Assembly: GCF_044324875.1 (NCBI RefSeq) | Contig: NZ_CP172186.1 | DNA from: Escherichia coli | Lineage (GTDB): Bacteria > Pseudomonadota > Gammaproteobacteria > Enterobacterales > Enterobacteriaceae | Length of the DNA stretch: 64,000 nt | Direction: 5' to 3' (one strand) | In this document: in pieces, positions 6,540 through 41,581 of the stretch | Position numbering within the stretch: position 1 is the first letter of the stretch | How the letters are laid out: every line of letters begins with the position of its first letter | Position numbers and translations under genes: made by a program | The notes under the pieces: generated by a model | Databases searched by the model: none | Seen by the model: only the letters and a program-made list of their open reading frames with translations | Told to the model about the DNA's origin: nothing

Positions 6540-6956
6540 TTATCCTGCCCAGTCTTCCAGTACCAGTCCAGGCACCCGCTCAAACTCTCTCACATTATTC
6601 GTCACCAGTATTGCCCCGGTGGCGATGGCGTGCCCGGCGATCGCCGTGTCGTTCGGACCGATCGGCGTGCCGGCGAGGCGCAGCGCCACCTTAACCTCCG
6701 TGGTTGCATCCACCGCAGCGCGATCCCAGGGCAGGATGGCATCGAGACGGGCGCAGAACGCGTCAACCAGCTGCACGTGGCGTGGCGATGCCTTTGGACC
6801 GGTGGCGCCGAAGCGCATCTCGGAGTAGGTGATGGCCGAGACCACTATACGGTGACCGCGCAGCACCGCCTGCTCCAGATTCTTAAGCACTGCTTCAGGC
6901 TGCTCGCGCATGATGAACGAGCAGATGTTCGTGTCGAGCATATAGATCTTGTTCAC
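6540..6956 (-). CDS. vapC: VapC toxin (PIN-domain RNase), copy 1
   Basis: 138 aa MNKIYMLDTNICSFIM...; overlaps vapB by 4 nt. Confidence 0.9.
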   Translation of the reverse strand: MNKIYMLDTNICSFIMREQPEAVLKNLEQAVLRGHRIVVSAITYSEMRFGATGPKASPRHVQLVDAFCARLDAILPWDRAAVDATTEVKVALRLAGTPIGPNDTAIAGHAIATGAILVTNNVREFERVPGLVLEDWAG

Positions 6957-7183
6957 AGGTTAAATCGTCCTTCGTCGCAGACAACGTCCTCGCGTTCCGT
7001 CATAAAGCCCGGATCGGCCTTTTCTAGCTCCAGGAATGAGCTCCAGCTCGGGCGGAGGGGACGCAGAATGATTCTGTCCCCTTCCCGTACAATCTCCAGC
7101 TCACTCACCCCCTCAAAATCCAGATCGCGGGGCAGACGGATCGCGCGGTTATTGCCATTTTTGAAAATAGATACGGTTCTCAT
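6953..7183 (-). CDS. vapB: VapB antitoxin (AbrB/SpoVT-type), copy 1
   Basis: 76 aa MRTVSIFKNGNNRAIRLPRDLDFEG... Confidence 0.9.
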   Translation of the reverse strand: MRTVSIFKNGNNRAIRLPRDLDFEGVSELEIVREGDRIILRPLRPSWSSFLELEKADPGFMTEREDVVCDEGRFNL

Positions 7184-7222
7184 GTCTTCCTCCTGGCAAG
7201 ATGGCTTTTATATATGTTTAGT

Positions 7223-11563: not shown

Positions 11564-14500
11564 ATGAATAAGAATATACGAATTTTACAGTTTCTGGTCA
11601 GTATACTTTATTCTGTGCAGTCTCATTTTTCTGGTGCGCAAACAATACAACTGAATGGTAATGGTATACCTGAAAGTATAACCAGGAGTATTACAGGTGT
11701 TGATGGAAACGCGGCGCTTAATATCAGCGTGCCGTATAAAACAAGTTATACTCAAAATATACTATCTGTTGAAAGCAGTATTAACATCAAAGGAGGAACA
11801 AGCAATACATCAATCGGTGGTGCAGGTGTCTACGGTGAAAACTTTACGCTAAATAATAATGGTAGTGTTTGGGGAGGAGATGGATATAATGGTGGAGTTG
11901 CTGTTAGTGGCAACAAAATATCTATAAACAATTACAGAAATGTATATGGGGGTAATGGTCTTGGTGGCTCAGGAAGTAGCGGAGGTGCAGGGTTAAGCGG
12001 GGATGATATTATAGTTGATAATTACAGAAGTATATACGGAGGTGATGATCTAGGTGGGACAGGTGGTTCCGGTGTAACCGGGAGCAATATTACAGTGCAT
12101 AATTCCGGAGGAATATGGGGTGGTAATGGCGTAAACGGTGGTGATGGTATTAATGGTAGTAATCTTTTCATTACTAACGACAACATGATATCTGGAGGAT
12201 ATGGAATAAAACAAGGGGGAGATGCTATTTCTGGAAATCAAATCACTTTGAATAATAACGGTATTGTTCAGGGGGGATATGGCCCCGACGGTAGTTGCTC
12301 TGTTTATGGAGAAGATATCCATATTAATAATCATGGTAATATTTCAGGCTCATATAATAGCCAAAAAGATGCTTATAACACATCAATAATTTTTTCTGCT
12401 GGGTATAATTCATTAGATATTTATTCAGATTCTGTGATTAATGGTGATATTAAACTAGCTAGTATACCTGTTAATGGTACAAATGAATTAATTATTAAAA
12501 ACATCAATAACGCAACAGCAATTAATGGTGGGCTAATGATTGGGAATGGCTCGTCTGTTTATCTGTCAAGCAAGAACATCATTTTTAACGGAAATATAAG
12601 TATTGATGAAGACGCATCTATGAACCTGTCTGCAGGAAATGCTAATGTTCACGCAAATACTATTACATTAAAAAGTGATTCATGGCTTAATATAGACACA
12701 TCAATTAAGAACTGGACTCAGGACTATTACACATTATTGTCGTCAGACACAGGTATCTCGATCGCTGATAATAGTCACATTGTACAATACAATGTATTAC
12801 TGACAGAAGGTGCTGAAAGTTATGTTTATACGTCTTTAAATGACGACGATAACAAACTGATATCCATGCTGAGATGGAATAATACAAAAGGGATGGGATA
12901 TGGAACCTTTAATATAGAAAAAGATGCCACTCTGAACATAGGAGTTTCTCTTTCCGATAATCTTTCACCTTTATTATATGATGGCTGGGACGGCAAAAGT
13001 CTGACAAAATCAGGTAATGGTACTCTTATACTTTCTGCAACAAACAACTATACAGGAAATACAGAGGTTAAATCTGGCGTATTAATTCTTGCTGCACCTG
13101 ATGCTCTTGGTCGGACTGAGTATTTATATTTATCCCGTGGCGCAGAACTGGATATGAATGGGTATCCTCAGACAATAAGCAAACTACTGACGGCTGCAGG
13201 CTCTGTGCTGAACATTCATGGCGGAAGCCTGATACTGAATAATGGAGGAGAATCTGCAGGTACTATTGCAGGGGATGGTTCTCTGAACATAAATGGGGGA
13301 ATGCTTGATATAACGGGTAATAATCGTAATTTTTCCGGTGTTTTTACCGTGAATAAGGGGGCTCAGTTGGCTGTATCCACGGCTGATAATCTGGGGACAG
13401 CCTTTGTTGATAACTATGGCACATTAACTCTGAACAGTACATCAGCATGGCAGCTTACCAACAATATCAGTGGTTATGGTAATGTTCGCAAGACGGGAGC
13501 AGGTGCACTGAACATTAGCGATAACGCAAAATGGACCGGGATGACAGATATTATTCAGGGGACATTGATTCTGGGTAACGCAGATTCACCGGTGATGCTC
13601 GGCAGTAACCAGGTCATTGTTGAAGAGCAGGGCAAACTCTCCGGGTTTGGGGGCGTTGCAGGAAATCTGAGCAATAGTGGTATAGTCGATCTCACTACAT
13701 ATATGCCGGGTAATATACTGACTGTCGGAGGGAATTACACTGGCAGAAATGGACTTATTCTCCTCCAGACAGAAACAGGTGGTGACAATTCGAAAACAGA
13801 TCGTCTGGTGATTAAAGGTAATGCCAGTGGCCGTACCCGTGTCGCTGTTACTCAGGCCGGTGGTACTGGTGCAGAGACACTTAATGGGATTGAAGTGATT
13901 CACGTCAGTGGCAATGCTGATAATGCTGAATTCATTCAGACGGAACGTATTACAGCCGGAGCTTATGATTACATACTGAAACGTGGTCAGGGGATTAACA
14001 GCACTAACTGGTATCTGATTAGCAGAAAAGACATTCCTGTACCACAACCTGAAGCTGTACCGGAAAACCATGATAATAATTTGCGTCCTGAGGCAGGTAG
14101 CTATGTTGCCAGTATTGCTGCTGCAAATAATCTGTTTGTAACGAATCTGTATGAACGACAGGGACAGGAGTTGTATATCAGCCACATGACAGGAGAAGAA
14201 AATGAAGCAGGTATCTGGATGTATAATAAAGGAAAACATAATCGCTGGCGTGACAACAGTAGTCAGCTGAGAACCCGGGGGAATAGCTACGTTGTGTTAA
14301 TAGGGGGAGATATAGCTCAGTGGAGCCTGAATGGTACCGATCGCTGGCATACAGGTATGATGGCTGGCTATGGTCATAATCATAACAGTACGAATGCCCT
14401 GAGCACCGGATACCATTCGGAAGGAAGAATGAATGGATACACTGCGGGTCTTTATGCAACATGGTATGCCAATGATGAAACACACAATGGTTCTTATCTT

Positions 14501-15061
14501 GATAGCTGGCTGCAATACAGCTGGTTTGATAATCATATAAATGGAGAACGGCTGCCTGCTGAGTCATGGAAGTCAAAAGGGTTTACGGTATCTCTGGAAG
14601 CAGGATATTCATGGAAGGCTGGAGAGTTTACCGACAATTACAAGGGAAGTCATGAATGGTATGTTCAGCCGCAGCTTCAGGTTGTCCGGATGAATGTAAA
14701 ATCAGACAGACATCGTGAAAGTAACGGAACCAGTATTGAAAATACCGGTAACGGAAATATTCTCACTCGCCTGGGAGCGAGAACATGGTTTGTCAGTAAA
14801 AACGGTAAGAATTCACGGTATGCAGTTCCTCTCAGGCCATTTGTAGAAGTAAACTGGCTGCACAATAGTCGTGTTTTCGGCACCAGTATGAATGGTGTAA
14901 GTATTTACCAGGATGGGGCGCATAATATCGGAGAAATAAATGGTGGTGTTGTGGGAGTGATAACTCCAGAAGTGGTATTGCGGGCTGATGCAGGCATTCA
15001 ACTTGGAGAGCATGGATACCGCAATGCATCTGCTATGTTCGGCGTGGAATATCGTTTCTGA
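11564..15061 (+). CDS. Autotransporter (type Va) adhesin-like protein, AIDA-I/Ag43 type
   Basis: 1165 aa; N-terminal signal peptide; Gly-rich repetitive passenger (GGxGxxGG repeats); C-terminal beta-barrel ending ...FGVEYRF; AT-rich. Confidence 0.8.
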   Translation: MNKNIRILQFLVSILYSVQSHFSGAQTIQLNGNGIPESITRSITGVDGNAALNISVPYKTSYTQNILSVESSINIKGGTSNTSIGGAGVYGENFTLNNNGSVWGGDGYNGGVAVSGNKISINNYRNVYGGNGLGGSGSSGGAGLSGDDIIVDNYRSIYGGDDLGGTGGSGVTGSNITVHNSGGIWGGNGVNGGDGINGSNLFITNDNMISGGYGIKQGGDAISGNQITLNNNGIVQGGYGPDGSCSVYGEDIHINNHGNISGSYNSQKDAYNTSIIFSAGYNSLDIYSDSVINGDIKLASIPVNGTNELIIKNINNATAINGGLMIGNGSSVYLSSKNIIFNGNISIDEDASMNLSAGNANVHANTITLKSDSWLNIDTSIKNWTQDYYTLLSSDTGISIADNSHIVQYNVLLTEGAESYVYTSLNDDDNKLISMLRWNNTKGMGYGTFNIEKDATLNIGVSLSDNLSPLLYDGWDGKSLTKSGNGTLILSATNNYTGNTEVKSGVLILAAPDALGRTEYLYLSRGAELDMNGYPQTISKLLTAAGSVLNIHGGSLILNNGGESAGTIAGDGSLNINGGMLDITGNNRNFSGVFTVNKGAQLAVSTADNLGTAFVDNYGTLTLNSTSAWQLTNNISGYGNVRKTGAGALNISDNAKWTGMTDIIQGTLILGNADSPVMLGSNQVIVEEQGKLSGFGGVAGNLSNSGIVDLTTYMPGNILTVGGNYTGRNGLILLQTETGGDNSKTDRLVIKGNASGRTRVAVTQAGGTGAETLNGIEVIHVSGNADNAEFIQTERITAGAYDYILKRGQGINSTNWYLISRKDIPVPQPEAVPENHDNNLRPEAGSYVASIAAANNLFVTNLYERQGQELYISHMTGEENEAGIWMYNKGKHNRWRDNSSQLRTRGNSYVVLIGGDIAQWSLNGTDRWHTGMMAGYGHNHNSTNALSTGYHSEGRMNGYTAGLYATWYANDETHNGSYLDSWLQYSWFDNHINGERLPAESWKSKGFTVSLEAGYSWKAGEFTDNYKGSHEWYVQPQLQVVRMNVKSDRHRESNGTSIENTGNGNILTRLGARTWFVSKNGKNSRYAVPLRPFVEVNWLHNSRVFGTSMNGVSIYQDGAHNIGEINGGVVGVITPEVVLRADAGIQLGEHGYRNASAMFGVEYRF

Positions 15062-15555: not shown

Positions 15556-16401
15556 GTGAGCTGCAGTGAGCTGCATATTGCCCCGTCAACGTATTACCAC
15601 TGTCAGCAACAGCAGCATCATCCTGATAAACGCAGCGCCCGTGCGCAGCGTGATGACTGGCTGAAGAAAGAGATACAGCGCGTATACGATGAAAATCACC
15701 AGGTGTACGGTGTGCGTAAAGTCTGGCGTCAGTTGTTACGGGAAGGTATCAGAGTGGCCAGATGCACTGTGACACGTCTTATGGCGGTTATGGGTTTTGC
15801 CGATGTTCTCCGGGGTAAAAAGGTCCGCATTACCGTCAGCCGGAAAGCCGTTGCCGCAGGCGACCGCGTAAACCGTCATTTCGTGGCAGAACGTCCTGAC
15901 CAGCTGTGGGTGGCTGATTTTACTTACGTCAGCACATGGCAGGGCTTTGTTTATGTGGCGTTCATCATTGATGTGTTTGCCGGATACATCGTGGGATGGC
16001 GGGTCTCCTCGTCCATGGAAACGACATTCGTGCTGGATGCACTGGAGCAGGCGTTGTGGGCCCGTCGTCCATCTGGCACCATCCATCACAGCGATAAAGG
16101 CTCTCAGTATGTATCGCTGGCCTACACGCAGCGGCTTAAGGAAGTCGGATTACTGGCATCAACAGGGAGCACAGGCGACTCGTATGACAACGCGATGGCG
16201 GAGAGCATCAATGGTCTTTACAAGGCGGAGGTAATACACCGTAAGAGCTGGAAAAACCGGACAGAAGTGGAGCTGGCTACACTCACGTGGGTGGACTGGT
16301 ATAACAATCGACGATTGCTGGAAAGGCTGGGCCATACTCCCCCGGCAGAAGCAGAAAAAGCTTATTATGCTTCCATCGGAAACAATGATCTGGCAGCCTG
16401 A
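15556..16401 (+). CDS. IS3-family transposase OrfB (DDE; made as OrfAB fusion by -1 frameshift)
   Basis: 281 aa; tracked start is an alternative codon downstream of the frameshift window. Confidence 0.85.
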   Translation: MSCSELHIAPSTYYHCQQQQHHPDKRSARAQRDDWLKKEIQRVYDENHQVYGVRKVWRQLLREGIRVARCTVTRLMAVMGFADVLRGKKVRITVSRKAVAAGDRVNRHFVAERPDQLWVADFTYVSTWQGFVYVAFIIDVFAGYIVGWRVSSSMETTFVLDALEQALWARRPSGTIHHSDKGSQYVSLAYTQRLKEVGLLASTGSTGDSYDNAMAESINGLYKAEVIHRKSWKNRTEVELATLTWVDWYNNRRLLERLGHTPPAEAEKAYYASIGNNDLAA

Positions 16402-16493
16402 GTTCACAGACAAAACATTCTCCAGGAAACCCGGGGCGGTTCAATATGGATACCAGCTGTTCACTTCCAGAGCGGGCTGTTACCCGCTCTGCG

Positions 16494-17726
16494 TCATGTT
16501 GCCGCCAGCGGGCGACAGATCGCCCGCAGGGCGACGGCGCTGCACAGCGGAAACAGCGCCAGCAGAAGCCAGGGATAAACCGCCTGCGGCGACGGAATGA
16601 GCGCCTGGTCAAGTAAATGACCGAGCAGTAAATTCCCGGCTAACACCGCGCACCCTCCTGCGGTGGCGAGCGCTCCGTAGTGGGCGCCCAGCGTCGACTC
16701 CTCGGCGAACAGCGGGATCAGATCCTTGGCTGCGGGCACTAACAGCATCTGGCCGAGGGTGAGCAGCGTGACAAAACCAGCCGCCGGCATTAACCGCAGC
16801 CAACTTTCGGCGGGTGGGGCGGCGGCGAATAACGCCACGCTGGCAAAGGAAGCCGACAGCAGCAGAAAGCCCACCGGCAGGATGCGCACGGCGCCCATTC
16901 GCCGGGCGAAGCGGGCGAGAGGGAGCTGGAGGGTGATAATCAACAGCGAGGCCAGCATAAAGAGCGGCGCCAGATCCTGCTCGCGGCCGCCGGAACGTTG
17001 GATCTCCACCGGCAGAGCGAGGTAGAGTTGGTTGTAGCTCAACAGCCATGAGCTGTAGGCGAGAATAAACGCGACAAAGCGCGGCTGGCGCAAAGGCGTC
17101 CACCATGGGACTCGTCTGCGCGTTGTTGTCGTGTGCCCGTCGGCGGGCAGACCGAAAAAGAGCACCGCCAGCGCCAGAAGAAATATTCCCGCGCCGGCGA
17201 GGGCGATATGTCGAAAGCCGATCCCGCTCAGCACGCCTCCGGCCACCGGGCCGATCACCGCTCCCAGTTCACCGCATACCGCAAACAGCGCAAACCACTC
17301 GGCGCGGCTGCGTTTCCCGTTGGCCTGGCTGTGGGTACCGGCCCGCGCCAGCAGGGCCTCTATCGACGGGGAGAACAGGGCGCCGCCGACGCCGGTCAGG
17401 CAGGCGCCAAGGATAATGGCCCACAGCGACGCCCCGCACGCCAGCAGGAGAAAACCGGCGACGCGAACGACGCAGCCGGCGAGAATGATCGCCTTAGCGC
17501 CATAGCGGTCGGCCAGCGTCCCGCCGAGGATAAACATCCCCTGTTGGGAGAAGGTACGCAGCCCGAGGATCAGGCCGATAAGTCCGCCTGAGAGCAGCAT
17601 GTCGTCGCGCAGGAAGAGGGCGAGGAAAGGTACGACCGCGTAAAAGCCAATATTAAAAACGAACTGGCTTCCCAGTAACACCGGAGGCCAGAGGGTTGCC
17701 GCAGGGCGCAGGGAGAAAAGAGGCAT
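16494..17726 (-). CDS. MFS transporter
   Basis: 12-TM-like hydrophobic profile; ATG at 17726 chosen (tracked ORF extends to 17816 and overlaps the ATPase gene). Confidence 0.7.
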   Translation of the reverse strand: MPLFSLRPAATLWPPVLLGSQFVFNIGFYAVVPFLALFLRDDMLLSGGLIGLILGLRTFSQQGMFILGGTLADRYGAKAIILAGCVVRVAGFLLLACGASLWAIILGACLTGVGGALFSPSIEALLARAGTHSQANGKRSRAEWFALFAVCGELGAVIGPVAGGVLSGIGFRHIALAGAGIFLLALAVLFFGLPADGHTTTTRRRVPWWTPLRQPRFVAFILAYSSWLLSYNQLYLALPVEIQRSGGREQDLAPLFMLASLLIITLQLPLARFARRMGAVRILPVGFLLLSASFASVALFAAAPPAESWLRLMPAAGFVTLLTLGQMLLVPAAKDLIPLFAEESTLGAHYGALATAGGCAVLAGNLLLGHLLDQALIPSPQAVYPWLLLALFPLCSAVALRAICRPLAAT

Positions 17727-17737
17727 ATCCGCCCAAC

Positions 17738-18502
17738 CTAAACGATGAAATGAATGTGCTTTTTGCCGTGGTAAGGGGAGATCTCGATTTTGGTTTTCAC
17801 CCGGAAAACGTCCCACAGCAGCGCTTCGGACAAAATCTCCTCCGGCGTCCCGCTGGCGAGGATCTGCCCCTGCTGCATCACGATCAGCGAATCGCAGAAC
17901 ATCGCGGCATGGTTAAGATCGTGAATGGCCACAATGCTGGTTACCGGCAGCTCGCTGATCAACTGCATTAACTGCATCTGATGGTGTATATCCAGATGGT
18001 TGGTCGGCTCATCCAGCAGGATTTCGCTCGGGCTCTGCGCCAGCGCGCGGGCGATATGCACCCGCTGCCGCTCGCCGCCGGAGAGGCTTAACCATCCCTG
18101 TTCGCTTTTCTCCAGCATCGCTACCCGCTGCAGCGCGGCGGCAATCGCTTCGTCATCCTGAGCGCTCCAGTTTGAGAACGGAGAGTGGTGGGGAATGCGT
18201 CCCAGGCGCACGACGTCGCGCACCCGCATATTGGCCTCGGTCATGCCGTGTTGCTCGACGCAAGCCACGCGGCGGGCGAGCTGCTTTTTCGCCATCCGGG
18301 CGATATCCTGGCCGTCGAGGGTGACGCGACCTGCATCCGGGCGGCGCAGGCCCGCCAGAACGCGCAGCAGCGAGGATTTGCCGCAGCCGTTGGGCCCCAG
18401 CAGTCCGACCGTTTCTCCGCGCGGCACCCGCAGCGAGACATTATTGACGATGACCTTTTTGCCTGCCTTCCAGGTGATATTTTCAGCGCAAATACTCATC
18501 AC
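17738..18502 (-). CDS. ABC transporter ATP-binding protein (FecE/FepC-like, iron-chelate uptake)
   Basis: Walker A GPNGCGKSS, signature LSGGERQR, Walker B ILLDEPT. Confidence 0.9.
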   Translation of the reverse strand: MMSICAENITWKAGKKVIVNNVSLRVPRGETVGLLGPNGCGKSSLLRVLAGLRRPDAGRVTLDGQDIARMAKKQLARRVACVEQHGMTEANMRVRDVVRLGRIPHHSPFSNWSAQDDEAIAAALQRVAMLEKSEQGWLSLSGGERQRVHIARALAQSPSEILLDEPTNHLDIHHQMQLMQLISELPVTSIVAIHDLNHAAMFCDSLIVMQQGQILASGTPEEILSEALLWDVFRVKTKIEISPYHGKKHIHFIV

Positions 18503-21979: not shown

Positions 21980-22264
21980 ATGCAAATGAAAAACAATACC
22001 GCACAGGCAACAAAAGTCATTACCGCGCATGTGCCATTACCAATGGCTGATAAAGTCGACCAGATGGCCGCCAGACTGGAACGCTCCCGGGGCTGGGTTA
22101 TCAAACAGGCGCTTTCTGCATGGCTTGCCCAGGAGGAGGAGCGTAATCGCCTGACGCTGGAAGCCCTGGACGATGTGAAATCCGGACAGGTTATCGACCA
22201 TCAGGCTGTACAGGCCTGGGCGGACAGCCTCAGTACTGACAATCCGTTACCGGTGCCACGCTGA
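21980..22264 (+). CDS. RHH (CopG/ParD-like) antitoxin
   Basis: 94 aa; precedes and abuts a RelE/ParE-like toxin gene. Confidence 0.75.
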   Translation: MQMKNNTAQATKVITAHVPLPMADKVDQMAARLERSRGWVIKQALSAWLAQEEERNRLTLEALDDVKSGQVIDHQAVQAWADSLSTDNPLPVPR

Positions 22265-22539
22265 TGGAACTGAAGTGGACCAGTAAGGCGCTTTCTGATT
22301 TGGCGCGGTTATATGATTTTCTGGTGCTGGCCAGTAAACCTGCGGCCACCAGAACGGTGCAGTCCCTGACACAGGCACCGGTCATTCTGTTAACTCATCC
22401 ACGTATGGGAGAACAGTTGTTTCAGTTTGAACCCAGGGAGGTCAGACGGATTTTTGCTGGCGAGTACGAAATCCGTTACGAACTTAATGGCCAGACTATT
22501 TATGTATTGCGCCTGTGGCACACACGAGAAAACAGGTAG
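22264..22539 (+). CDS. RelE/ParE-family toxin
   Basis: 91 aa MELKWTSKALSDLARLYDFL...IYVLRLWHTRENR. Confidence 0.8.
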   Translation: MELKWTSKALSDLARLYDFLVLASKPAATRTVQSLTQAPVILLTHPRMGEQLFQFEPREVRRIFAGEYEIRYELNGQTIYVLRLWHTRENR

Positions 22540-23046: not shown

Positions 23047-24339
23047 TCAGGCCGGCACATACCTCAGCAGACTGATATCCCGCGCGTTTTTCTTCAGCCC
23101 TGATACATTCAGCCCCGCAAGGGCCCGGCGGTATACCATCCGGCCGCCACACAGCACGCATTCGAACGGGTCACGACTCAGGAACTGTTTCACCATTTGT
23201 GCATAGCACACTTTCGCCACCGGTTCCGGTTTATCCATCCCCAGAGCTCGGTACACCTGCGGCAGCTTCTCTCCACACCCCCGGTTGGCAAGGAACCCGA
23301 AGTACCTCACCATCTTAAAAAACTTCTCCGGGATGTGCTGTTTCATCCTCGCGACCAGCTCACGCTGCGTCAGCGTTTCCGTCGCTGTCTCTCCCGTTTT
23401 GTGGTCCAGGTAACGGAAGCTCAGGCTCGCCCCTCCGTTGTAATGTGCCAGCCGGGAAGCCGCTATTGGTGGCTTCTTCAGATAACGACCCAGGTAGCGT
23501 GCCGTATTCCGCCCGCCGGCCGTCTTCTTCGACATGTACACATGCCAGTATTTTCCGCCGGCTTTCAGCACCAGGCTTCTCCACTGTGATTCCGTCGTGA
23601 TATGTGACAACGACTCCGGCATCGCCATCCCCTCTGACCACGCTTTCAGAAGCAACTGCCGTATATTCCACATCCACCGCGAACGCATTGCGTCTTTCAG
23701 GAAGCTCAGCTTTTTCCACTGACCGTGCTTATTCAGCCCCCCGCAGGTTACTGACACATGTACATGCGGATGCCAGTTGAGACGACGGCCATATGTGTGG
23801 ATGGCGCAGAAGATACCGGGTTCCAGCCCCCGTTTTCGGGCGGCATACAGCAGCCAACGGTTGCTTTCGAACACCGGCCACAGCGTGTCCGGCAGGGTGA
23901 AGACCAGGTGTACCCAGTCGCAGTCAGGAAGACGATTCAGCTGTGTCGCTGTCCACAGGTCTGTGGCCTTTTTTCCGCAGGACGGGCAGGCACGGCTGCC
24001 ACATGAGTTAGTGACGTATCTGACGTGGGGACAGTCAGGTTTATCGCAGTTGTATTCCTTCACGCCCAGTATCCGCGTGCCGCAGGCCAGCATTTTGGTG
24101 ACAGCCTCAACCTCGATATCGCGCAGACCGCCCGCATCCAGGAAGGACGTCCAGCACTGGTTGGCTGTGAACAGGCGTTTCAGCGGACGGGGCTGAAAAT
24201 CACCACCACTTCGGGTCATCCATCCTGCACGCTCCATCTGATAATGTTCTGACAGGTAAAAATAATATCCTGCATGATTTGTGTGCTCATGATTTCTGAT
24301 AATATCAGATATTGTTTTATCATCAATGATGAAAACCAT
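23047..24339 (-). CDS. IS91-family rolling-circle transposase (HUH, Y2)
   Basis: N-terminal Zn-finger CPHVRYVTNSCGSRACPSCG; HUH-like HTYGRRLNWHPHVHV; element ends not delimited. Confidence 0.85.
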   Translation of the reverse strand: MVFIIDDKTISDIIRNHEHTNHAGYYFYLSEHYQMERAGWMTRSGGDFQPRPLKRLFTANQCWTSFLDAGGLRDIEVEAVTKMLACGTRILGVKEYNCDKPDCPHVRYVTNSCGSRACPSCGKKATDLWTATQLNRLPDCDWVHLVFTLPDTLWPVFESNRWLLYAARKRGLEPGIFCAIHTYGRRLNWHPHVHVSVTCGGLNKHGQWKKLSFLKDAMRSRWMWNIRQLLLKAWSEGMAMPESLSHITTESQWRSLVLKAGGKYWHVYMSKKTAGGRNTARYLGRYLKKPPIAASRLAHYNGGASLSFRYLDHKTGETATETLTQRELVARMKQHIPEKFFKMVRYFGFLANRGCGEKLPQVYRALGMDKPEPVAKVCYAQMVKQFLSRDPFECVLCGGRMVYRRALAGLNVSGLKKNARDISLLRYVPA

Positions 24340-24576
24340 ATCTGATATGATTTTATATATATTTCTTAATTATCATATCATTTGCGTCTTTTCTGCCGCG
24401 CAGATCCGGTTTCCGGCTAAGTCGGATCGACCTAATCTTTGTTTCTGATATGAACACCTCGGAGAGGTGTAAGCAATGGTATAAACGAAATGTATTATGT
24501 ATCTGCATCACAGCATGCGGGCACATTTTGCGGAAGGATATGAATCCCCCCGGAATAACTGGCAAAGGACAGATAA

Positions 24577-26715
24577 ATGGACATTGAAATACGCCACTGC
24601 AATAACATCGTACGAGCACATATCACCCTCACTGCCGATAAACTGAACATTAAGTTTGCGCCAAATGGTACTGGAAAAAGTACGCTGTCACGGGCCATAA
24701 GCTGTGCGGCGCGGGACGACATTCAGGGACTACAGGCACTGATGCCCTTCCGGCTGCGCGGAGAAAACCCCGATAGCACCGGGCCCATTGTCATCGGTGC
24801 TGACGGGATTGGGGACGTGATGTGCTTCAACGAGGAGTACGTCAGTCAGTTTACGTTCCAACCGGACGAGCTCATCAGTGATAGCTTTAATATTCTTATC
24901 CGCAATCAAGCCCATGCGGAAAGAGAGCGTGAAATAGAAGAAATGACGCAAAAGATCCGGGCTGTTTTCACGGATCACACTGAGCTGAACTCTCTGATAG
25001 ACCATCTACAGGAACTCAGTAATGCTTTCAGATCAACCAGTTCCGGGATTTCACGTTCTTCAACCGGCATGAGAGGTCTGTCAGGCGGAAATAAAATACA
25101 CCACATTCCGGCTGGTCTTGAGAACTATCAACCCTACATCCGCAGTGAACGCCGCGTGGAATGGATTGACTGGCAGACAAAGGGACTCGAGTTTTCGCCC
25201 CTTTCGGATGGCTGCTGTCCGTTCTGTACCGGTGATATCACGGGAAAGGAAGCACAAATTCGCCAAGTCAGAGAGGAATACGATAAATCCACCATTAAAA
25301 ACCTGACCGCTATCATCAGACTGGTGGAAAACCTCGGTAATTACCTGACGGAGAGCGCCAGAGAACGCCTTCTGGCCATTACTATGCTTCAGAACGGTCC
25401 GGAAGCCGAACATATCGAGTACCTAGTGGCGTTGAAACGCCAGACCGATACGCTGACAGAGAAACTCACTGCGCTGAGAGGCCTGAATGTTTTCAGCCTG
25501 CAGGAACAGCAGAACGTTCGGGAGGTGCTCACTGCCAGGTTGATTGACCTGCAGTTCTTCCCTGATCTGCAATCCGAACTCATGCAGGGGATCACCGACA
25601 GACTGAACGCGGCCCTTATGGACCTGATAAACCTTGCCGGACCGCTGCAGGGAAAAATTAACCGGCACCGGGACAGCATGATCCGGCTGATCGCACAGCA
25701 CAAAACAAACATCAATAATTTCCTCACTTATGCAGGCTATAAATACAGGGTGGATATAGCCGGCGAGGGAGAGCAGAGAAAACTCAGGCTACGACACATA
25801 GATTTTGACGGGTACGTCAGCGGCGGTAGCCAGCATCTCAGCTATGGAGAACGGAACGCCTTTGCGATTGTGTTATTCATGTATGAATGCCTGTCAAAAA
25901 ACCCGGGACTGATTATCCTTGATGATCCCATATCTTCTTTTGATAAAAACAAGAAGTTTGCCATTCTTGAAATGCTGTTCAGACGTGCAAGTGGTGAATG
26001 CCTGAAGAACCGGACTGTACTTATGCTGACGCATGACGTGGAGCCTGTGATTGACACGCTGAAGTCAGTCAGAAGGTTGTTCAGTAATCAGGTGACCGCC
26101 TCCTGCCTGCGCCTGTCTGCTGGAGTCATAGAAGAATTACCTGTTAACGACGGCGATATCATGACATTCATGCAGATCTGCAAATCCATCACCGCGTCAG
26201 CAGACTGTGAGGAGATCATTAAGCTCATCTATCTTCGTCGCTACTTTGAAATCGTTGACGAACGTGGTGATGCTTATCAGCTTCTATCCAATCTATTCCA
26301 TCGACGCGTCGTCCCGCTGGATTATCGCGAGCCTGCCGCTGCGGGCTCGGGCTATCCCAAAATGGCTCCTGAGAAAATTCAGCAGGCCTTGCGGGATATC
26401 CGGGAGTATGTGGACAGTTTTGATTACCCGCGACTTCAGGCTCTCGTCAGCAGCCCAGATGAAATAAAAAACCTGTACCGTCGCTGTCGTAACGGCTATG
26501 AAAAACTGCAGGTATTCCGTTTACTGGAACTGGATCAGGACCATCCGGTAATACGAAAATTCGTTAACGAAACGTACCACATTGAAAATGAGTTCATCTG
26601 TCAACTAGATCCGTCCAGATTCGATCTCATCCCGGAGTACGTGATTATGGAATGTGACAAGCTCATCGCCCTGCCACCGGCAGCAAACCAGAGCTCGGTT
26701 GCCCGTATCGCTTGA
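24577..26715 (+). CDS. Solitary ABC-type ATPase with long coiled-coil insert containing a CxxC motif and an unassigned C-terminal domain (RloC/Rad50-like architecture); candidate defence protein
   Basis: 712 aa; Walker A FAPNGTGKST (aa 27-36); CPFC at about aa 209; signature-like LSYGER, Walker B LIILDDP, H-loop LMLTHD; last 220 aa without known motif. Confidence 0.6.
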   Translation: MDIEIRHCNNIVRAHITLTADKLNIKFAPNGTGKSTLSRAISCAARDDIQGLQALMPFRLRGENPDSTGPIVIGADGIGDVMCFNEEYVSQFTFQPDELISDSFNILIRNQAHAEREREIEEMTQKIRAVFTDHTELNSLIDHLQELSNAFRSTSSGISRSSTGMRGLSGGNKIHHIPAGLENYQPYIRSERRVEWIDWQTKGLEFSPLSDGCCPFCTGDITGKEAQIRQVREEYDKSTIKNLTAIIRLVENLGNYLTESARERLLAITMLQNGPEAEHIEYLVALKRQTDTLTEKLTALRGLNVFSLQEQQNVREVLTARLIDLQFFPDLQSELMQGITDRLNAALMDLINLAGPLQGKINRHRDSMIRLIAQHKTNINNFLTYAGYKYRVDIAGEGEQRKLRLRHIDFDGYVSGGSQHLSYGERNAFAIVLFMYECLSKNPGLIILDDPISSFDKNKKFAILEMLFRRASGECLKNRTVLMLTHDVEPVIDTLKSVRRLFSNQVTASCLRLSAGVIEELPVNDGDIMTFMQICKSITASADCEEIIKLIYLRRYFEIVDERGDAYQLLSNLFHRRVVPLDYREPAAAGSGYPKMAPEKIQQALRDIREYVDSFDYPRLQALVSSPDEIKNLYRRCRNGYEKLQVFRLLELDQDHPVIRKFVNETYHIENEFICQLDPSRFDLIPEYVIMECDKLIALPPAANQSSVARIA

Positions 26716-26816
26716 GCCACTGTTTTTGCCGCCGGAAGATAGGCTTTAGCTCCCTGATAGTCTGATCTTCGAAGATACCCTACAGTTTAGGACCGCTTAC
26801 TGTAGATATCTGTTAA

Positions 26817-26838
26817 AACAGCCCGTATACGGGCTGTT
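26817..26838. terminator. Hairpin between the ATPase gene and vapC copy 2
   Basis: ACAGCCCGTA/TACGGGCTGT perfect palindrome; T-run on the minus strand side. Confidence 0.5.
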
Positions 26839-26876
26839 TCTTGGTGCCCTTATCTCCTGACTTTGAAAAGAGTGTC

Positions 26877-27293
26877 TTACTTCACCCAGTCTTCCAGCAC
26901 CAGGTCAGGCACTCGCTCAAATTCTCTTGTATTATTCGTTACCAGTATCGCCCCGGCGGCGATGGCGTGCCCGGCAATCGCCGTGTCGTTCGGGCCGATC
27001 GGCGTCCCGGCCAGCCGCAGTGCCACTTTAATCTTCGTGGTGGCGTCTACTGCGGCGCGATCCCAGGGCAGGATGGCATCGAGGCGGGCGCAGAATTCAT
27101 CGACCAGTTGGACGTGACGTGGTGAGGCCTTTGGGCCGGTAGCCCCGAAGCGCATTTCAGAGTAGGTGATGGCCGAGACCACTATACGGTGGCCGCGTAG
27201 CACCGCCTGCTCCAGACGCTTCAGGACGGCTTCTGGCTGTTCACGCATGATGAACGAGCAGATACAGGTATCAAGCATATAAGTCTTGTTCAC
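26877..27293 (-). CDS. vapC: VapC toxin (PIN domain), copy 2 (divergent paralog)
   Basis: 138 aa; about 93 percent identical to copy 1. Confidence 0.9.
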   Translation of the reverse strand: MNKTYMLDTCICSFIMREQPEAVLKRLEQAVLRGHRIVVSAITYSEMRFGATGPKASPRHVQLVDEFCARLDAILPWDRAAVDATTKIKVALRLAGTPIGPNDTAIAGHAIAAGAILVTNNTREFERVPDLVLEDWVK

Positions 27294-27520
27294 AGGTTAA
27301 ATCGCCCTTCGTCGCTGACAACATCCTCGCGCTCCGCCATAAAATCTGGATCGGCTTTTTCGTACTCTAGGAATGATCCCCAGGTTGGCCGGACGGGGCG
27401 CAGGATGATGCTGTCCCCTTCCCGGACGATCTCGAGCTCGCTCACCCCCTCAAAATCCAGATCACGAGGCAGACGGATGGCGCGGTTGTTGCCATTTTTA
27501 AATATCGATACGGTTCTCAT
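27290..27520 (-). CDS. vapB: VapB antitoxin, copy 2
   Basis: 76 aa; paralog of 6953-7183. Confidence 0.9.
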   Translation of the reverse strand: MRTVSIFKNGNNRAIRLPRDLDFEGVSELEIVREGDSIILRPVRPTWGSFLEYEKADPDFMAEREDVVSDEGRFNL

Positions 27521-28079
27521 GTTCTTTCTCTCCCGAGCATATGGATATGTGAAACATATCCGGAATATTCAAAGCACCGGGTGTGTGCATATGTTTAGTA
27601 TAGGCAGATGTGTGGCATATGTATAGCGGTAGCATATGTAGATGCCAGGCATATGTTTAGCATATCCCTATTTCTTTCTTTTTTATCGGAGATCCGAAAA
27701 AAGGTTGTTCAGGATCTTCCTCTCCCCCCACACAACGCCACCTCCTGTAAGCACAACATGTGGTGCCGGATTCAGCTGCTGATGACACTATATGTTGTGT
27801 CATCTCCCTGACCTGTGATGCGTCGCGCAGGGGCGGAAAACAGCGATATGATGATTTCCTCAGCGTGGTACACTTCCGGAAAGTTGTGATATTCCGGAAA
27901 GTCGGATCTGACGGAAACGGCTCTCCGGTAATTTAACGGCGTGGTTATATGGATGCTTGTTATCATGGTGATGATGATAACGGCATGATGTTATCAGACG
28001 GCGTGACGGTAAGGGCAGTGATGATGGATGACGTTATCGCATGACCGTCCCTGCCCGGAAAAGAAAAAAGGAGTCACCC

Positions 28080-38920: not shown

Positions 38921-41581
38921 GTGCGCCGTTGAAGCGCGGTGTTTTATGGAGTGTTGCCTGAAAAGCAACATGGCTTAGTGGTATAGCCATTGCATACTGT
39001 GGTTAGCCTTGCTTGGTAACAGGCTCGGAGATCCTGAAAAGGAGAGGTGAACATAGCATCCACAGAAAAGGGTGGTGAATATGGAAATCGTTATAAGTAT
39101 CACCATTCAATGCAAGATGTATATGGATAAACTGGGTTTGTTGAAGTCGAGATCTATGTGGGAAACAGGAAACCAATAACGCAGAACGATTGAAGCGTTA
39201 TTCCCGTACTAGCACAAGAAATCCGTCCGACGTTGATTGTGACCACTCTAACGGGCCAGCTATTGATGAAATAGTTAAACGATCGAAAGACATCCTAAGT
39301 ACATCGCATCTCCACACCGTGAAACTACGGGACTACCTAAACTGGATTTATACCCAGCATGGTAGCGGAGTCTCCATAGTACTCAAGGTCGGCCTGTAAT
39401 GGGTTCCGGCAGTCCGCATTATACGGAAGCAGCAAAGGTATAAATCAACCGGAAGGAAGATGAAAGCCTCACAGTGCTGCGGGGAAGGGAGACAGTTGTT
39501 AGATACATCAATCTCTAAGAGGAGGGTTAGCCAATGCTGCCTGATGAACTTGAGAAAAGATTAGATGGAATTGAGGATGCTTCAAAAAAAGGGTATCCAG
39601 TACGTAATCTATACAAAATTGCGTGTGAGCCCGGACTGTGGCTGCAAGCCTACGTGAATATACGGGCCAATGCAGGTGCACTGACTCAAGGTGTATCAAC
39701 AGATACCATTGATGGCTTTTCTATCGAAAGAGCAGAGAAGCTGGCAAAAACATTGCGGAGTAGAGAATACGTAGCGAAACCTGTACGCAGAGTTCAGATC
39801 CCAAAAAAGGACGGAAAAACCAGACCGCTGGGGATTCCAGGTGGAGACGATAAACTGGCGCAAGAAGTAGCAAGAATTATTCTGGAAAGGGTTTATGAAC
39901 CAGTATTCTCTGAACACTCTCATGGATTCAGACCAAAACGTTCGTGTGAAACTGCGCTCAGATCTATTCGTCCAGTCTGGAACGGAGTTAAATGGATCGT
40001 GGATGTTGATATCAAAGGTTTCTTTGACAATATCCCCCACAAACTATTGCTGAATACACTGGCAGAGAAAATTAAGGATAAGAATTTCCTGAAATTAATC
40101 GAACAGTGGCTGAAGGCAGGATATGTGGACAATTGGAAATACCATCGCTCATATTCTGGCACGCCACAAGGTGGGATAATTTCTCCCTTACTGGCAAATA
40201 TATACCTCGACAAACTGGACCGTTTTGTAGAACAGAATTTAATTCCTGCATATACAAGCGGTACAAAACGAAGAGCGAATCCAGATATGAACAGGCTGGC
40301 CCATAAGATTCATAAACTACGAAAGAAAGTAGACGGTATGGCAACTGATTCTGAATCAGAAAAAGAAGCCATAAAGAAAGAAATTGAACGACTGCTTGAA
40401 GAAAAACGTTCTATACCATCTCAGGTCATGAACGATCCAAACTTCAGGCGTATGTACTATGTTCGATATGCTGATGACTTCGTAATCGGTGTCATCGGCT
40501 CGAAGAAAGATGCTGAACATATATCAAGACAGGTCAGAAACTTTATTACTACTTCACTGGGATTGGAAGTTAATGAAGCAAAGACCAGGATCCGCCATAT
40601 CTCAGAAGGAGTTAATTTTTTAGGCTATGAAATCAGACAGGCAGATGCAAAGAAATTGCTGAAGCAGAAAATGCAAGGGCGGCACGCTCTCCGGAGATCC
40701 ACCACAGGAATTGTGCAGCTCTTCGTTCCTGACAATATAGCCGCTAAATTTTGTCACCAAAAGAAATATGGCTGTTATGAGAATGTGAAGGCTGTACATC
40801 GTTCAAGTCTACAAAATCTCAGTGAAGCTGAAATTGTTCTGACTTTCAACGCGGAAATGCGCGGATTGGCGAACTACTACAGTCTGGCGCTGGACATGAA
40901 ATATAAATTATCAAAATTATATTTCATATGGCAAATAAGCCTTTTTAAGACCCTGGCGAATAAACGACGTAGTTCAGTGAATAAAGTCGCCAAATCGCTA
41001 CGGCAAAATAATGGAGATCTGGCTATTACCGTTCAGGCCAAAAATGGATCCCGAAAGATTGAGGTTTTCAAACTCAAACATGTCAATCGCAACCGAACAA
41101 CGATTGTCGATACGGAACCGAGAACCGCACATATCACAACCCGCACAACAGAGATCATGCGTCGATTAGGGGCAAGGATCTGCGAGTATTGTGCGAAGAC
41201 TGGGCGCTGCGAAGTACATCATGTCAGAAAGCTAAAAGACCTGAAGAAAGGTCGTAAGGCCGGATATAAACCCAGCTTGTGGCAACTAATGATGATCGCA
41301 CGCCGCCGGAAAACGATGATTTTGTGCGCAAGTTGCCACGACAAGTTACATAGCGGAAAACTACCCGATTTGAGACAGGAAAAGGGAAGAATACTCCTGC
41401 AACCACCTGTCTCAAGCGGGGATTCTGCTAAATGAGTTTATCCCCAATAAGCTAGCAATGGAGAGCCGTATGCACTGAAAGGTGCACGTACGGTTCGGAG
41501 GGGGGGTAACGGTGATCTAACTCAAGATAAGCAGGACATATTCGCCATTTATCTTGAAAGACCACACGTACCCTACCCTAC
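38921..41581 (+). mobile_element. Group II intron (2661 bp) inserted in ssb
   Basis: 5' GTGCG, 3' ...AC; domain V-like hairpin GAGCCGTATGCACTGAAAGGTGCACGTACGGTTC at about 41462; encodes RT/maturase/HNH protein; flanking exons splice in frame. Confidence 0.85.
39534..41435 (+). CDS. Group II intron-encoded protein (reverse transcriptase - maturase - HNH endonuclease)
   Basis: 633 aa; RT motifs incl. YADDFVIGV; C-terminal HNH CEYC...HHV...CASCHDKLH. Confidence 0.9.
   Translation: MLPDELEKRLDGIEDASKKGYPVRNLYKIACEPGLWLQAYVNIRANAGALTQGVSTDTIDGFSIERAEKLAKTLRSREYVAKPVRRVQIPKKDGKTRPLGIPGGDDKLAQEVARIILERVYEPVFSEHSHGFRPKRSCETALRSIRPVWNGVKWIVDVDIKGFFDNIPHKLLLNTLAEKIKDKNFLKLIEQWLKAGYVDNWKYHRSYSGTPQGGIISPLLANIYLDKLDRFVEQNLIPAYTSGTKRRANPDMNRLAHKIHKLRKKVDGMATDSESEKEAIKKEIERLLEEKRSIPSQVMNDPNFRRMYYVRYADDFVIGVIGSKKDAEHISRQVRNFITTSLGLEVNEAKTRIRHISEGVNFLGYEIRQADAKKLLKQKMQGRHALRRSTTGIVQLFVPDNIAAKFCHQKKYGCYENVKAVHRSSLQNLSEAEIVLTFNAEMRGLANYYSLALDMKYKLSKLYFIWQISLFKTLANKRRSSVNKVAKSLRQNNGDLAITVQAKNGSRKIEVFKLKHVNRNRTTIVDTEPRTAHITTRTTEIMRRLGARICEYCAKTGRCEVHHVRKLKDLKKGRKAGYKPSLWQLMMIARRRKTMILCASCHDKLHSGKLPDLRQEKGRILLQPPVSSGDSAK

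Follow-up and report, generated by a model that had tools for sequence, protein, structure and literature searches.

A candidate RloC-like ABC-ATPase/HEPN defence gene, widespread on plasmids of enterobacteria, whose nuclease domain is probably remodelled

The gene described here encodes an ATPase of 712 amino acids that is best compared with the RloC/PrrC anticodon-nuclease family. RloC is a suicide enzyme of bacteria that cleaves tRNA anticodons with excision of the wobble nucleotide, under the control of zinc, ATP and DNA (Davidov & Kaufmann 2008, PMC2610378). RloC proteins are defined by PrrC-type ATP-binding cassette (ABC) motifs, a coiled-coil/CXXC insert, a length of 658-897 amino acids and a C-terminal Arg-X3-Glu-X36-52-His arrangement, in which a Ser often precedes the His (PMC2610378). 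For Escherichia coli, the published list of RloC orthologues (Table S1) contains only a prophage protein of 738 amino acids, namely YP_852004 of strain APEC O1 (= APECO1_4465), a protein with phage neighbours, and it lists no genera of the subfamily described below (PMC2610378). A survey of HEPN domains treats APECO1_4465 as a family of ABC-HEPN proteins alongside those of PrrC and RloC (PMC3710099). The gene in question lies at positions 24577-26715 of a stretch of 64,000 nucleotides of E. coli DNA (RefSeq assembly GCF_044324875.1, contig NZ_CP172186.1), hereafter called the window. With a probability of roughly 60%, we consider its product to be a single polypeptide in which an RloC-like sensor, made up of an ABC ATPase and a zinc hook, is joined to a variant HEPN RNase, and which by analogy would act in abortive infection.

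The reading frame is uninterrupted from the ATG at 24577 to the stop at 26715, carries an AGGA 8-11 nucleotides 5' of the ATG, and has a guanine-cytosine (GC) content of 0.50 (0.52 window-wide). The protein is 100% identical to WP_000350638.1 as annotated in pO83_CORR. This is not a chance open reading frame (ORF): 1587 member sequences cluster under the identical protein, and the homologues scored number more than 3600. All motifs quoted for it in the initial annotation were found again at the same places. Residue conservation was scored over an alignment of 93 diverse sequences, in which K34, C214, S422, D449, D450, H486, R554 and H668 are invariant. The gene and the motifs of its ATPase part are as follows:

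24577..26715, + strand: complete ATPase gene, 712 amino acids (ORF list; product identical to WP_000350638.1, 'AAA family ATPase')
24655..24684, + strand: Walker A / P-loop FAPNGTGKST, residues 27-36 (aligns to YGQNGCGKST of the RloC-like family)
24883..25731, + strand: helical insert that splits the head of the ATPase, residues ~103-385 (AlphaFold secondary structure; Foldseek matches to SMC/Rad50/RecN heads)
25162..25227, + strand: hook motif WIDWQTKG...CPFC, residues 196-217, with CPFC at 214-217 (aligns to LDWVKKG...CPFC of the RloC-like family)
25837..25854, + strand: ABC signature LSYGER, residues 421-426 (alignment with ABC nucleotide-binding domains of the PDB spans 405-497)
25909..25944, + strand: Walker B and D-loop LIILDDPISSFD, residues 445-456, with LIILDDP at 445-451
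26020..26037, + strand: H-loop / switch LMLTHD, residues 482-487

The N-terminal three quarters of the protein are an SMC/Rad50-type ABC ATPase head with intact motifs, split by a stalk that carries a CPxC hook. In the full-length AlphaFold model (predicted local distance difference test (pLDDT) 92, predicted template modelling score 0.81) the insert measures about 280 amino acids, and not some 400 as first estimated. It is also not one long Rad50-like coiled coil: two long antiparallel helices (111-150 and 334-385) form the stalk, and a distal bundle of short helices on this stalk holds the CPFC. C214 is present in 93 of 93 and C217 in 92 of 93 sequences, and W196 and W199 are nearly invariant. 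As both Cys residues are near-invariant and the surroundings of the hook showed no further conserved Cys or His (H176 is conserved in close relatives only), CPFC fits a putative intermolecular 2+2 zinc hook such as those of Rad50 and RloC.

In a BLASTP comparison of the 712-residue protein with APECO1_4465 the ATPase motifs alone align. Profile-profile comparison (hhalign) of the 93-sequence alignment with 69 sequences of the APECO1_4465 family, by contrast, yields a probability of 99.7% (E=3.1e-25) over 572 columns, spanning Walker A, the DW..KG..CPFC hook, the LSxGE signature, DDPISS (the form of Walker B and D-loop in the APECO1_4465 family, found here as well) and the H-loop (LTH). Given this result, the likeness to RloC in ATPase and hook is homology and not mere resemblance; the RloC-like layout recognised in the initial annotation thus holds, and the ATPase/hook module is homologous to that of published RloC orthologues. 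A match to phrog_2801 (350 bits) was considered as independent support and rejected, because this PHROG is centred on APECO1_4465, which corresponds to it with 1294 bits, and was built by remote clustering. Some homologues of APECO1_4465 carry the name 'wobble nucleotide-excising tRNase'.

The remainder of the protein is a C-terminal domain with the following features:

26074..26712, + strand: C-terminal domain (residues 500-712), made up of a beta-hairpin and, after it, a predicted all-alpha, HEPN-like domain
26233..26250, + strand: LRRYFE (553-558), R554-X3-E558, putative catalytic Arg and Glu
26308..26523, + strand: subfamily-specific insertion, residues ~578-649
26554..26595, + strand: RKFVNETYHIENEF, K661-x6-H668 followed by E670 and N671, putative HEPN catalytic motif

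Modelled alone, this domain reaches a pLDDT of 91.5. Its last 180 amino acids are all-alpha in the model, and the closest folds appear to be those of HEPN RNases, a superfamily that includes LAS1L, Csx1/Csm6, LsoA and HEPN toxins (PMC3710099). The last 220 amino acids have no sequence match in Pfam, NCBIfam or the PDB, as had been said of them before; they need no longer be called unassigned, since profile-profile and fold comparison point to a diverged HEPN domain. In a Foldseek search of the C-terminal model against AFDB50, the top 50 matches are members of the same family only, and searches with the domain alone return no PADLOC model except its own sub-model and, among PHROGs, a weak share of phrog_2801. 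The domain has 448 representatives among 1.84 billion sequences, and was found only in proteins of about 700 amino acids with the same architecture or in shorter, apparently partial sequences.

The C-terminal residues picked as candidates at the outset proved well chosen: R554 and H668 occur in 93 of 93 sequences and E558 in 87 of 93. H668 closes the motif RKFVNETYH (residues 660-668), in which K661 is found in 90 of 93 sequences, and is followed by N671 (91 of 93); K643, R648, E665 and E670 are conserved as well. H668 is the only invariant His of the domain, H575 (X16 from E558) being His in only 67 of 93 sequences. The segment that separates the Arg/Glu helix from the His motif, residues ~578-649, consists of a loop and four helices (598-609, 617-624, 627-636 and 640-649) and includes a conserved YEKLQxFR.

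The C-terminus of APECO1_4465 reads MRNILE...(X39)...RYINRGSH, and the full-length hhalign alignment extends into this domain, placing R554 on R646 and E558 on E650. Comparisons of the C-terminal domains by themselves were run in part after removal of gap columns. The first half gives the same pairing of R554/E558 with R646/E650 (P=0.011), and the second half places KFVNETYH on RYINRGSH, with H668 on H690 (P=0.04-0.06). When residues 578-649 are deleted, a single co-linear alignment of 102 columns results with Arg, Glu and His all in register (P=0.046), while reversed sequences used as controls gave P=0.14-0.48. The C-terminal domain is therefore best read, from its sequence and predicted fold, as a diverged PrrC/RloC-type HEPN nuclease that carries an insertion of about 70 amino acids and a Lys in place of the canonical Arg.

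PADLOC already holds this family. The sub-model PDLC04889 of PDC-S06 matches residues 1-698 over positions 1-688 of its 693 (E=4.8e-286, 949 bits); the remaining 12 PDC-S06 models and those of LmuB, MADS, AriA and PrrC give weak matches, mostly in the ATPase motifs. PDC entries are candidates from a guilt-by-embedding screen, which collects genes that lie inside loci for BREX, DISARM or type I restriction-modification (R-M) (Payne et al., 2024, preprint, 10.1101/2024.01.29.577857). The gene is hence catalogued as a PDC-S06 candidate and represents no new kind of system; the word 'undescribed', used for it at first, has to be dropped, the more so as Pfam adds two weak AAA_13 segments in the full protein, its only matches there. 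In a survey of the Bacillus cereus group, PDC-S06 proteins of PADLOC are RloC according to DefenseFinder.

A mechanism may be proposed by analogy with RloC and PrrC (PMC2610378; PMC3458546; PMC3710099). In an uninfected cell, ATPase and hook together would hold the RNase inactive. The ATPase head may then sense a perturbation linked to phage infection, such as DNA ends or damage, foreign DNA, or a loss of restriction activity, and an ATP-driven rearrangement, possibly a dimerisation of heads or HEPN domains, would activate the RNase. This presumably metal-independent enzyme would cut tRNA anticodon loops, whereupon translation would halt and the phage would not multiply. Carried on IncF-type conjugative plasmids, such a protein could protect both the plasmid and the host population.

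Several points weigh against this proposal. The P-values of the stand-alone C-terminal comparisons, at just 0.01-0.06, are marginal although self-consistent, and one hhalign run placed the R-X3-E helix of RloC on residues ~630-640 instead. The Glu-to-His spacing is X109, compared with X36-52 in RloC and X39 in APECO1_4465, a difference that the insertion of about 70 amino acids accounts for. The HEPN Rx4-6H motif appears here as K661-x6-H668, in contrast to the R-x6-H of RloC, with Arg at this position in only 2 of 93 sequences, and Tyr or Phe stands before the His where RloC has Ser. As both the RloC spacing and Rx4-6H are lacking, we do not file the protein as RloC. APECO1_4465 matches many PDC-S06 sub-models over its full length, as well as the PrrC model by way of the nuclease domain of that model, whereas the C-terminal domain of the 712-residue protein by itself has no significant similarity to PrrC or to the RloC-type PDC-S06 sub-models, nor to the C-terminal part of AAA_13 or the HEPN families of Pfam. 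PDC-S06 itself has the status of a candidate only (10.1101/2024.01.29.577857), no paper mentioning WP_000350638 was found in the literature, and several homologues stand alone among housekeeping genes.

In a different view, ATPase and hook still act as a sensor in defence or conflict, but the C-terminal domain is no tRNase and either binds nucleic acid or protein or cuts mRNA, rRNA or DNA; alternatively, the role of the gene may lie in plasmid competition or stabilisation. We regard this view as unlikely on the whole, yet as the most serious competitor. The restriction of the C-terminal domain to one architecture, without significant stand-alone similarity to known nuclease families, would agree with it, as would the long insertion and the Lys at the position of the Arg that HEPN proteins canonically have. 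On the other hand, Arg, Glu and His are the very residue types of the PrrC/RloC triad, all three vary little or not at all, and R554 and E558 fall on the Arg and Glu of the RloC family in the full-length alignment.

The plasmid role draws on the distribution of the gene. In complete E. coli genomes it is present in 813 of 5426 (15%), near full length in 543, and 766 of the 863 placements are on plasmids, the other 97 being chromosomal. In PLSDB the DNA occurs in 1625 plasmids (655 with at least 80% coverage), mostly of E. coli, Salmonella and Klebsiella, where it is annotated only as 'AAA family ATPase'; of these records, 1289 are predicted to be conjugative. The gene also lies beside toxin-antitoxin and partition genes. 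However, the gene is not plasmid-specific in distant phyla, where relatives lie on chromosomes and inside R-M loci. In very distant phyla, the best-scoring matches share about 55% identity with the protein along its whole length; among them are Desulfobulbaceae, Kiritimatiellae, Cyanobacteria and Nitrosomonas. A tblastn search of 50,697 phage genomes gave no match.

The genomic context of homologues is partly that of a defence gene. A homologue in Kiritimatiellae is embedded in a type I R-M operon (hsdM-hsdS-[gene]-hsdR), one in Desulfobulbaceae overlaps an SNF2/methylase/ResIII operon at its end and has an integrase adjacent, and one in Serratia adjoins a TIR_2 gene. In E. coli, a diverged paralogue on the chromosome (68% identical in nucleotides) belongs to an island near ychF that an integrase bounds and that also encodes a helicase of 1589 amino acids. 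These loci, and the pifCA neighbourhood described below, are defence or mobile surroundings and support the initial interpretation; several other homologues stand alone. Among the sampled loci no recurrent partner gene was found. In two unrelated lineages (L013 9099-10262 and L006 8981-10120) a gene of about 380 codons overlaps the 3' end of the ATPase gene; these downstream genes were rejected as a shared partner, since their proteins are not homologous to each other, and in a related locus (L005) the corresponding region holds an SLFN_AlbA_2 domain. A divergent member of 742 amino acids (L017 7001-9229) is located between PAPS_reduct and GTP_EFTU genes that resemble cysD/cysN of sulfate assimilation.

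The gene for APECO1_4465 is located in a P2-like prophage of the APEC O1 chromosome, between the replication endonuclease and portal genes; at this locus (L016) it occupies 15933-18149, in a hotspot that replication gene A and the portal gene enclose. The same prophage encodes a second ATPase, annotated as 'P-loop ATPase, Sll1717 family', beside the tail-fibre genes (L016 33267-34853).

A housekeeping function as a DNA-repair or chromosome- or plasmid-maintenance ATPase of the SMC, Rad50, SbcC, RecN or RecF kind appears highly improbable. It has in its favour the CxxC hook, as in Rad50, and the Foldseek search of the PDB, in which SMC, Rad50 and RecN heads, each with a coiled coil, rank best and AriA comes next. 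NCBIfam adds weak matches to RecF and to an SMC-related protein of archaea. Every one of these NCBIfam scores, however, is far under its cutoff, and none of the SMC/Rad50/RecN alignments goes beyond about 660 columns. These matches leave the dedicated C-terminal domain and its invariant Arg and His unexplained; moreover, no gene of the Mre11/SbcD type or for a kleisin is adjacent here or at the sampled loci of homologues, the stalk is short, and the distribution is patchy and accessory, i.e. in 15% of E. coli genomes and mostly on plasmids.

The immediate neighbourhood of the gene comprises:

23047..24339, - strand: IS91-family transposase (NF033538, 291 bits, cutoff 125)
26877..27520, - strand: vapC (26877-27293) and vapB (27290-27520), both convergent with the ATPase gene (matches to VapC and VapB in NCBIfam)
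24216..27706, no strand assigned: block of 3.5 kb with the ATPase gene, 361 bp upstream of it and the convergent vapBC (blastn, annotation)

The gene thus does lie between an IS91-family transposase and a vapBC module, and it is solitary, as initially described, with no co-oriented partner beside it in the ORF list. That the ATPase and the adjacent vapBC form one module, in which the ATPase might sense infection and free the VapC tRNase, can largely be dismissed: both travel as the 3.5-kb block, 99.9% identical with differing plasmid flanks, and VapC lies beside the gene in 29 of the 30 best plasmid matches, but the two are convergent and hence not one operon, the plasmid copies are near-identical and thus not independent observations, and neither the chromosomal E. 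coli paralogue nor any sampled homologue of another genus has vapBC. In keeping with this, linkage to vapBC was not seen in the examined relatives outside these plasmids.

By blastn, the block 24216-27706 is shared with pO83_CORR at the said identity, and the flanks are dissimilar. Its left edge (~24216) lies within the 5' end of the transposase ORF, and in pO83_CORR no IS91 is annotated within 9 kb upstream of the block. IS91 therefore does not explain the spread of the gene, and the suggested co-mobilisation by this element is left without support. A few kb beyond vapBC, pO83_CORR (L008 13746-17061) carries pifC and a gene for a P-loop NTPase of 741 amino acids, probably PifA. PifA is the T7-exclusion protein of the F plasmid. 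With the ATPase-vapBC block so close to pifC/pifA, IncF backbones may carry a small cluster of defence genes.

Taken as a whole, the window is a plasmid segment of mosaic structure, with IS66, IS2, IS21 and IS91 transposases, an AIDA-type autotransporter and an ABC transporter. Its further contents are ParA- and ParB-like proteins, a relaxase of the MobP type, a group II intron, and an ORF that weakly resembles PRTRC protein D, with a score below the cutoff. A scan for promoters and terminators gave counts equal to the shuffled expectation. A second vapBC-like stretch at 6548-7185 shows 86% nucleotide identity to the vapBC beside the ATPase gene and matches positions 11586-12223 of the pO83_CORR locus, which indicates two related vapBC copies on the plasmid segment. 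At 21980-22539, two abutting, co-oriented small ORFs (94 and 91 amino acids) have the look of a toxin-antitoxin pair of the RelB/ParD-RelE/ParE type, for which no NCBIfam or PADLOC match was found at the thresholds applied. The group II intron reverse transcriptase/maturase of 633 amino acids at 39534-41435 (TIGR04416, 311 bits) also matches the 'HEase' and reverse transcriptase models of PADLOC, and could thus be mis-called as a defence reverse transcriptase. The autotransporter, of the AIDA-I/MisL type and 1165 amino acids long, is located at 11564-15061 between the IS66 and IS2 transposases, in a stretch of low GC content (0.36-0.45) and strong positive GC skew.

If active, the gene would be among the commonest single-gene abortive-infection determinants on conjugative plasmids of E. 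coli, Salmonella and Klebsiella, with a bearing on how plasmids affect phage susceptibility and hence on phage therapy. Should the proposed reading be true, the RloC/PrrC anticodon-nuclease family would gain a subfamily with a remodelled active-site region, and one that is unusually conserved (about 55% identity across phyla). A bolder version of this idea, which we hold to be doubtful, is that the C-terminal domain is an uncharacterised offshoot of the PrrC/RloC HEPN nuclease whose Lys-for-Arg motif and insertion of 70 amino acids would give it an RNA target or trigger unlike that of RloC, and that the gene, found in about 10-15% of complete E. coli genomes and mostly on conjugative plasmids, including colicin-encoding ones of the ColV type, is an unrecognised determinant of abortive infection or inter-plasmid conflict that surveys based on DefenseFinder have apparently missed. 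For a candidate that is at present catalogued, the value lies in its experimental priority and not in a new concept.

Compared with known systems, the gene shares the head fold with an inserted coiled coil with Rad50/SbcC/SMC as well as with AriA (PARIS), LmuB (Lamassu) and GajA/OLD. It differs from Rad50/SbcC/SMC in its short stalk and in having no partner nuclease or kleisin gene at any sampled locus, and from OLD, GajA, AriA and LmuB in that no TOPRIM match was obtained with PADLOC or Pfam and no partner gene (AriB, GajB, LmuA/C) is present. Unlike in Rad50/SMC and these ABC-ATPase defence proteins, the putative effector is fused to the ATPase and predicted to be HEPN-like. The pEK499_p136 HEPN family (Anantharaman et al.) was also considered as a relative and dropped, being described without an ABC fusion.

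With PrrC, the protein has in common an ABC ATPase of the same clade, matched from signature to D-loop (residues 421-473, E=3.5e-4), the residue types of the C-terminal Arg/Glu/His triad including the R-X3-E form, and the embedding of a defence nuclease in an R-M locus, as observed for some homologues. PrrC has no coiled-coil/hook insert and is always linked to type Ic R-M (PMC2610378), whereas the present protein has the insert of 280 amino acids, is flanked by the IS91 transposase and vapBC instead of hsd genes, and does not match the nuclease model of PrrC. Within PDC-S06 it is a full-length, top-scoring and single-gene member of PDLC04889, and members of the family are embedded in R-M loci; PDC-S06 is, however, a heterogeneous bin of 13 models, several of which match APECO1_4465 over its full length, while 12 match the 712-residue protein weakly.

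RloC remains the most extensive comparison. The C-terminus of APECO1_4465 is matched by the PrrC model and the RloC-type PDC-S06 sub-models, and that of the present protein is not. In common with RloC, the protein is a single polypeptide from a single gene, and its 712 amino acids lie inside the RloC range; it has all PrrC-type ABC motifs, including the linchpin His and the DDPISS form of Walker B and D-loop, a helical insert with an identical CPFC and DW..KG ahead of it, for which zinc binding is predicted from the sequence, and an apparently all-alpha C-terminal domain with R-X3-E and an invariant His downstream; and, as with RloC, members of its family are now and then embedded in R-M loci. 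We therefore describe the gene as a candidate for an RloC-like ABC-HEPN defence gene with a remodelled nuclease domain, one that is very common on enterobacterial plasmids.

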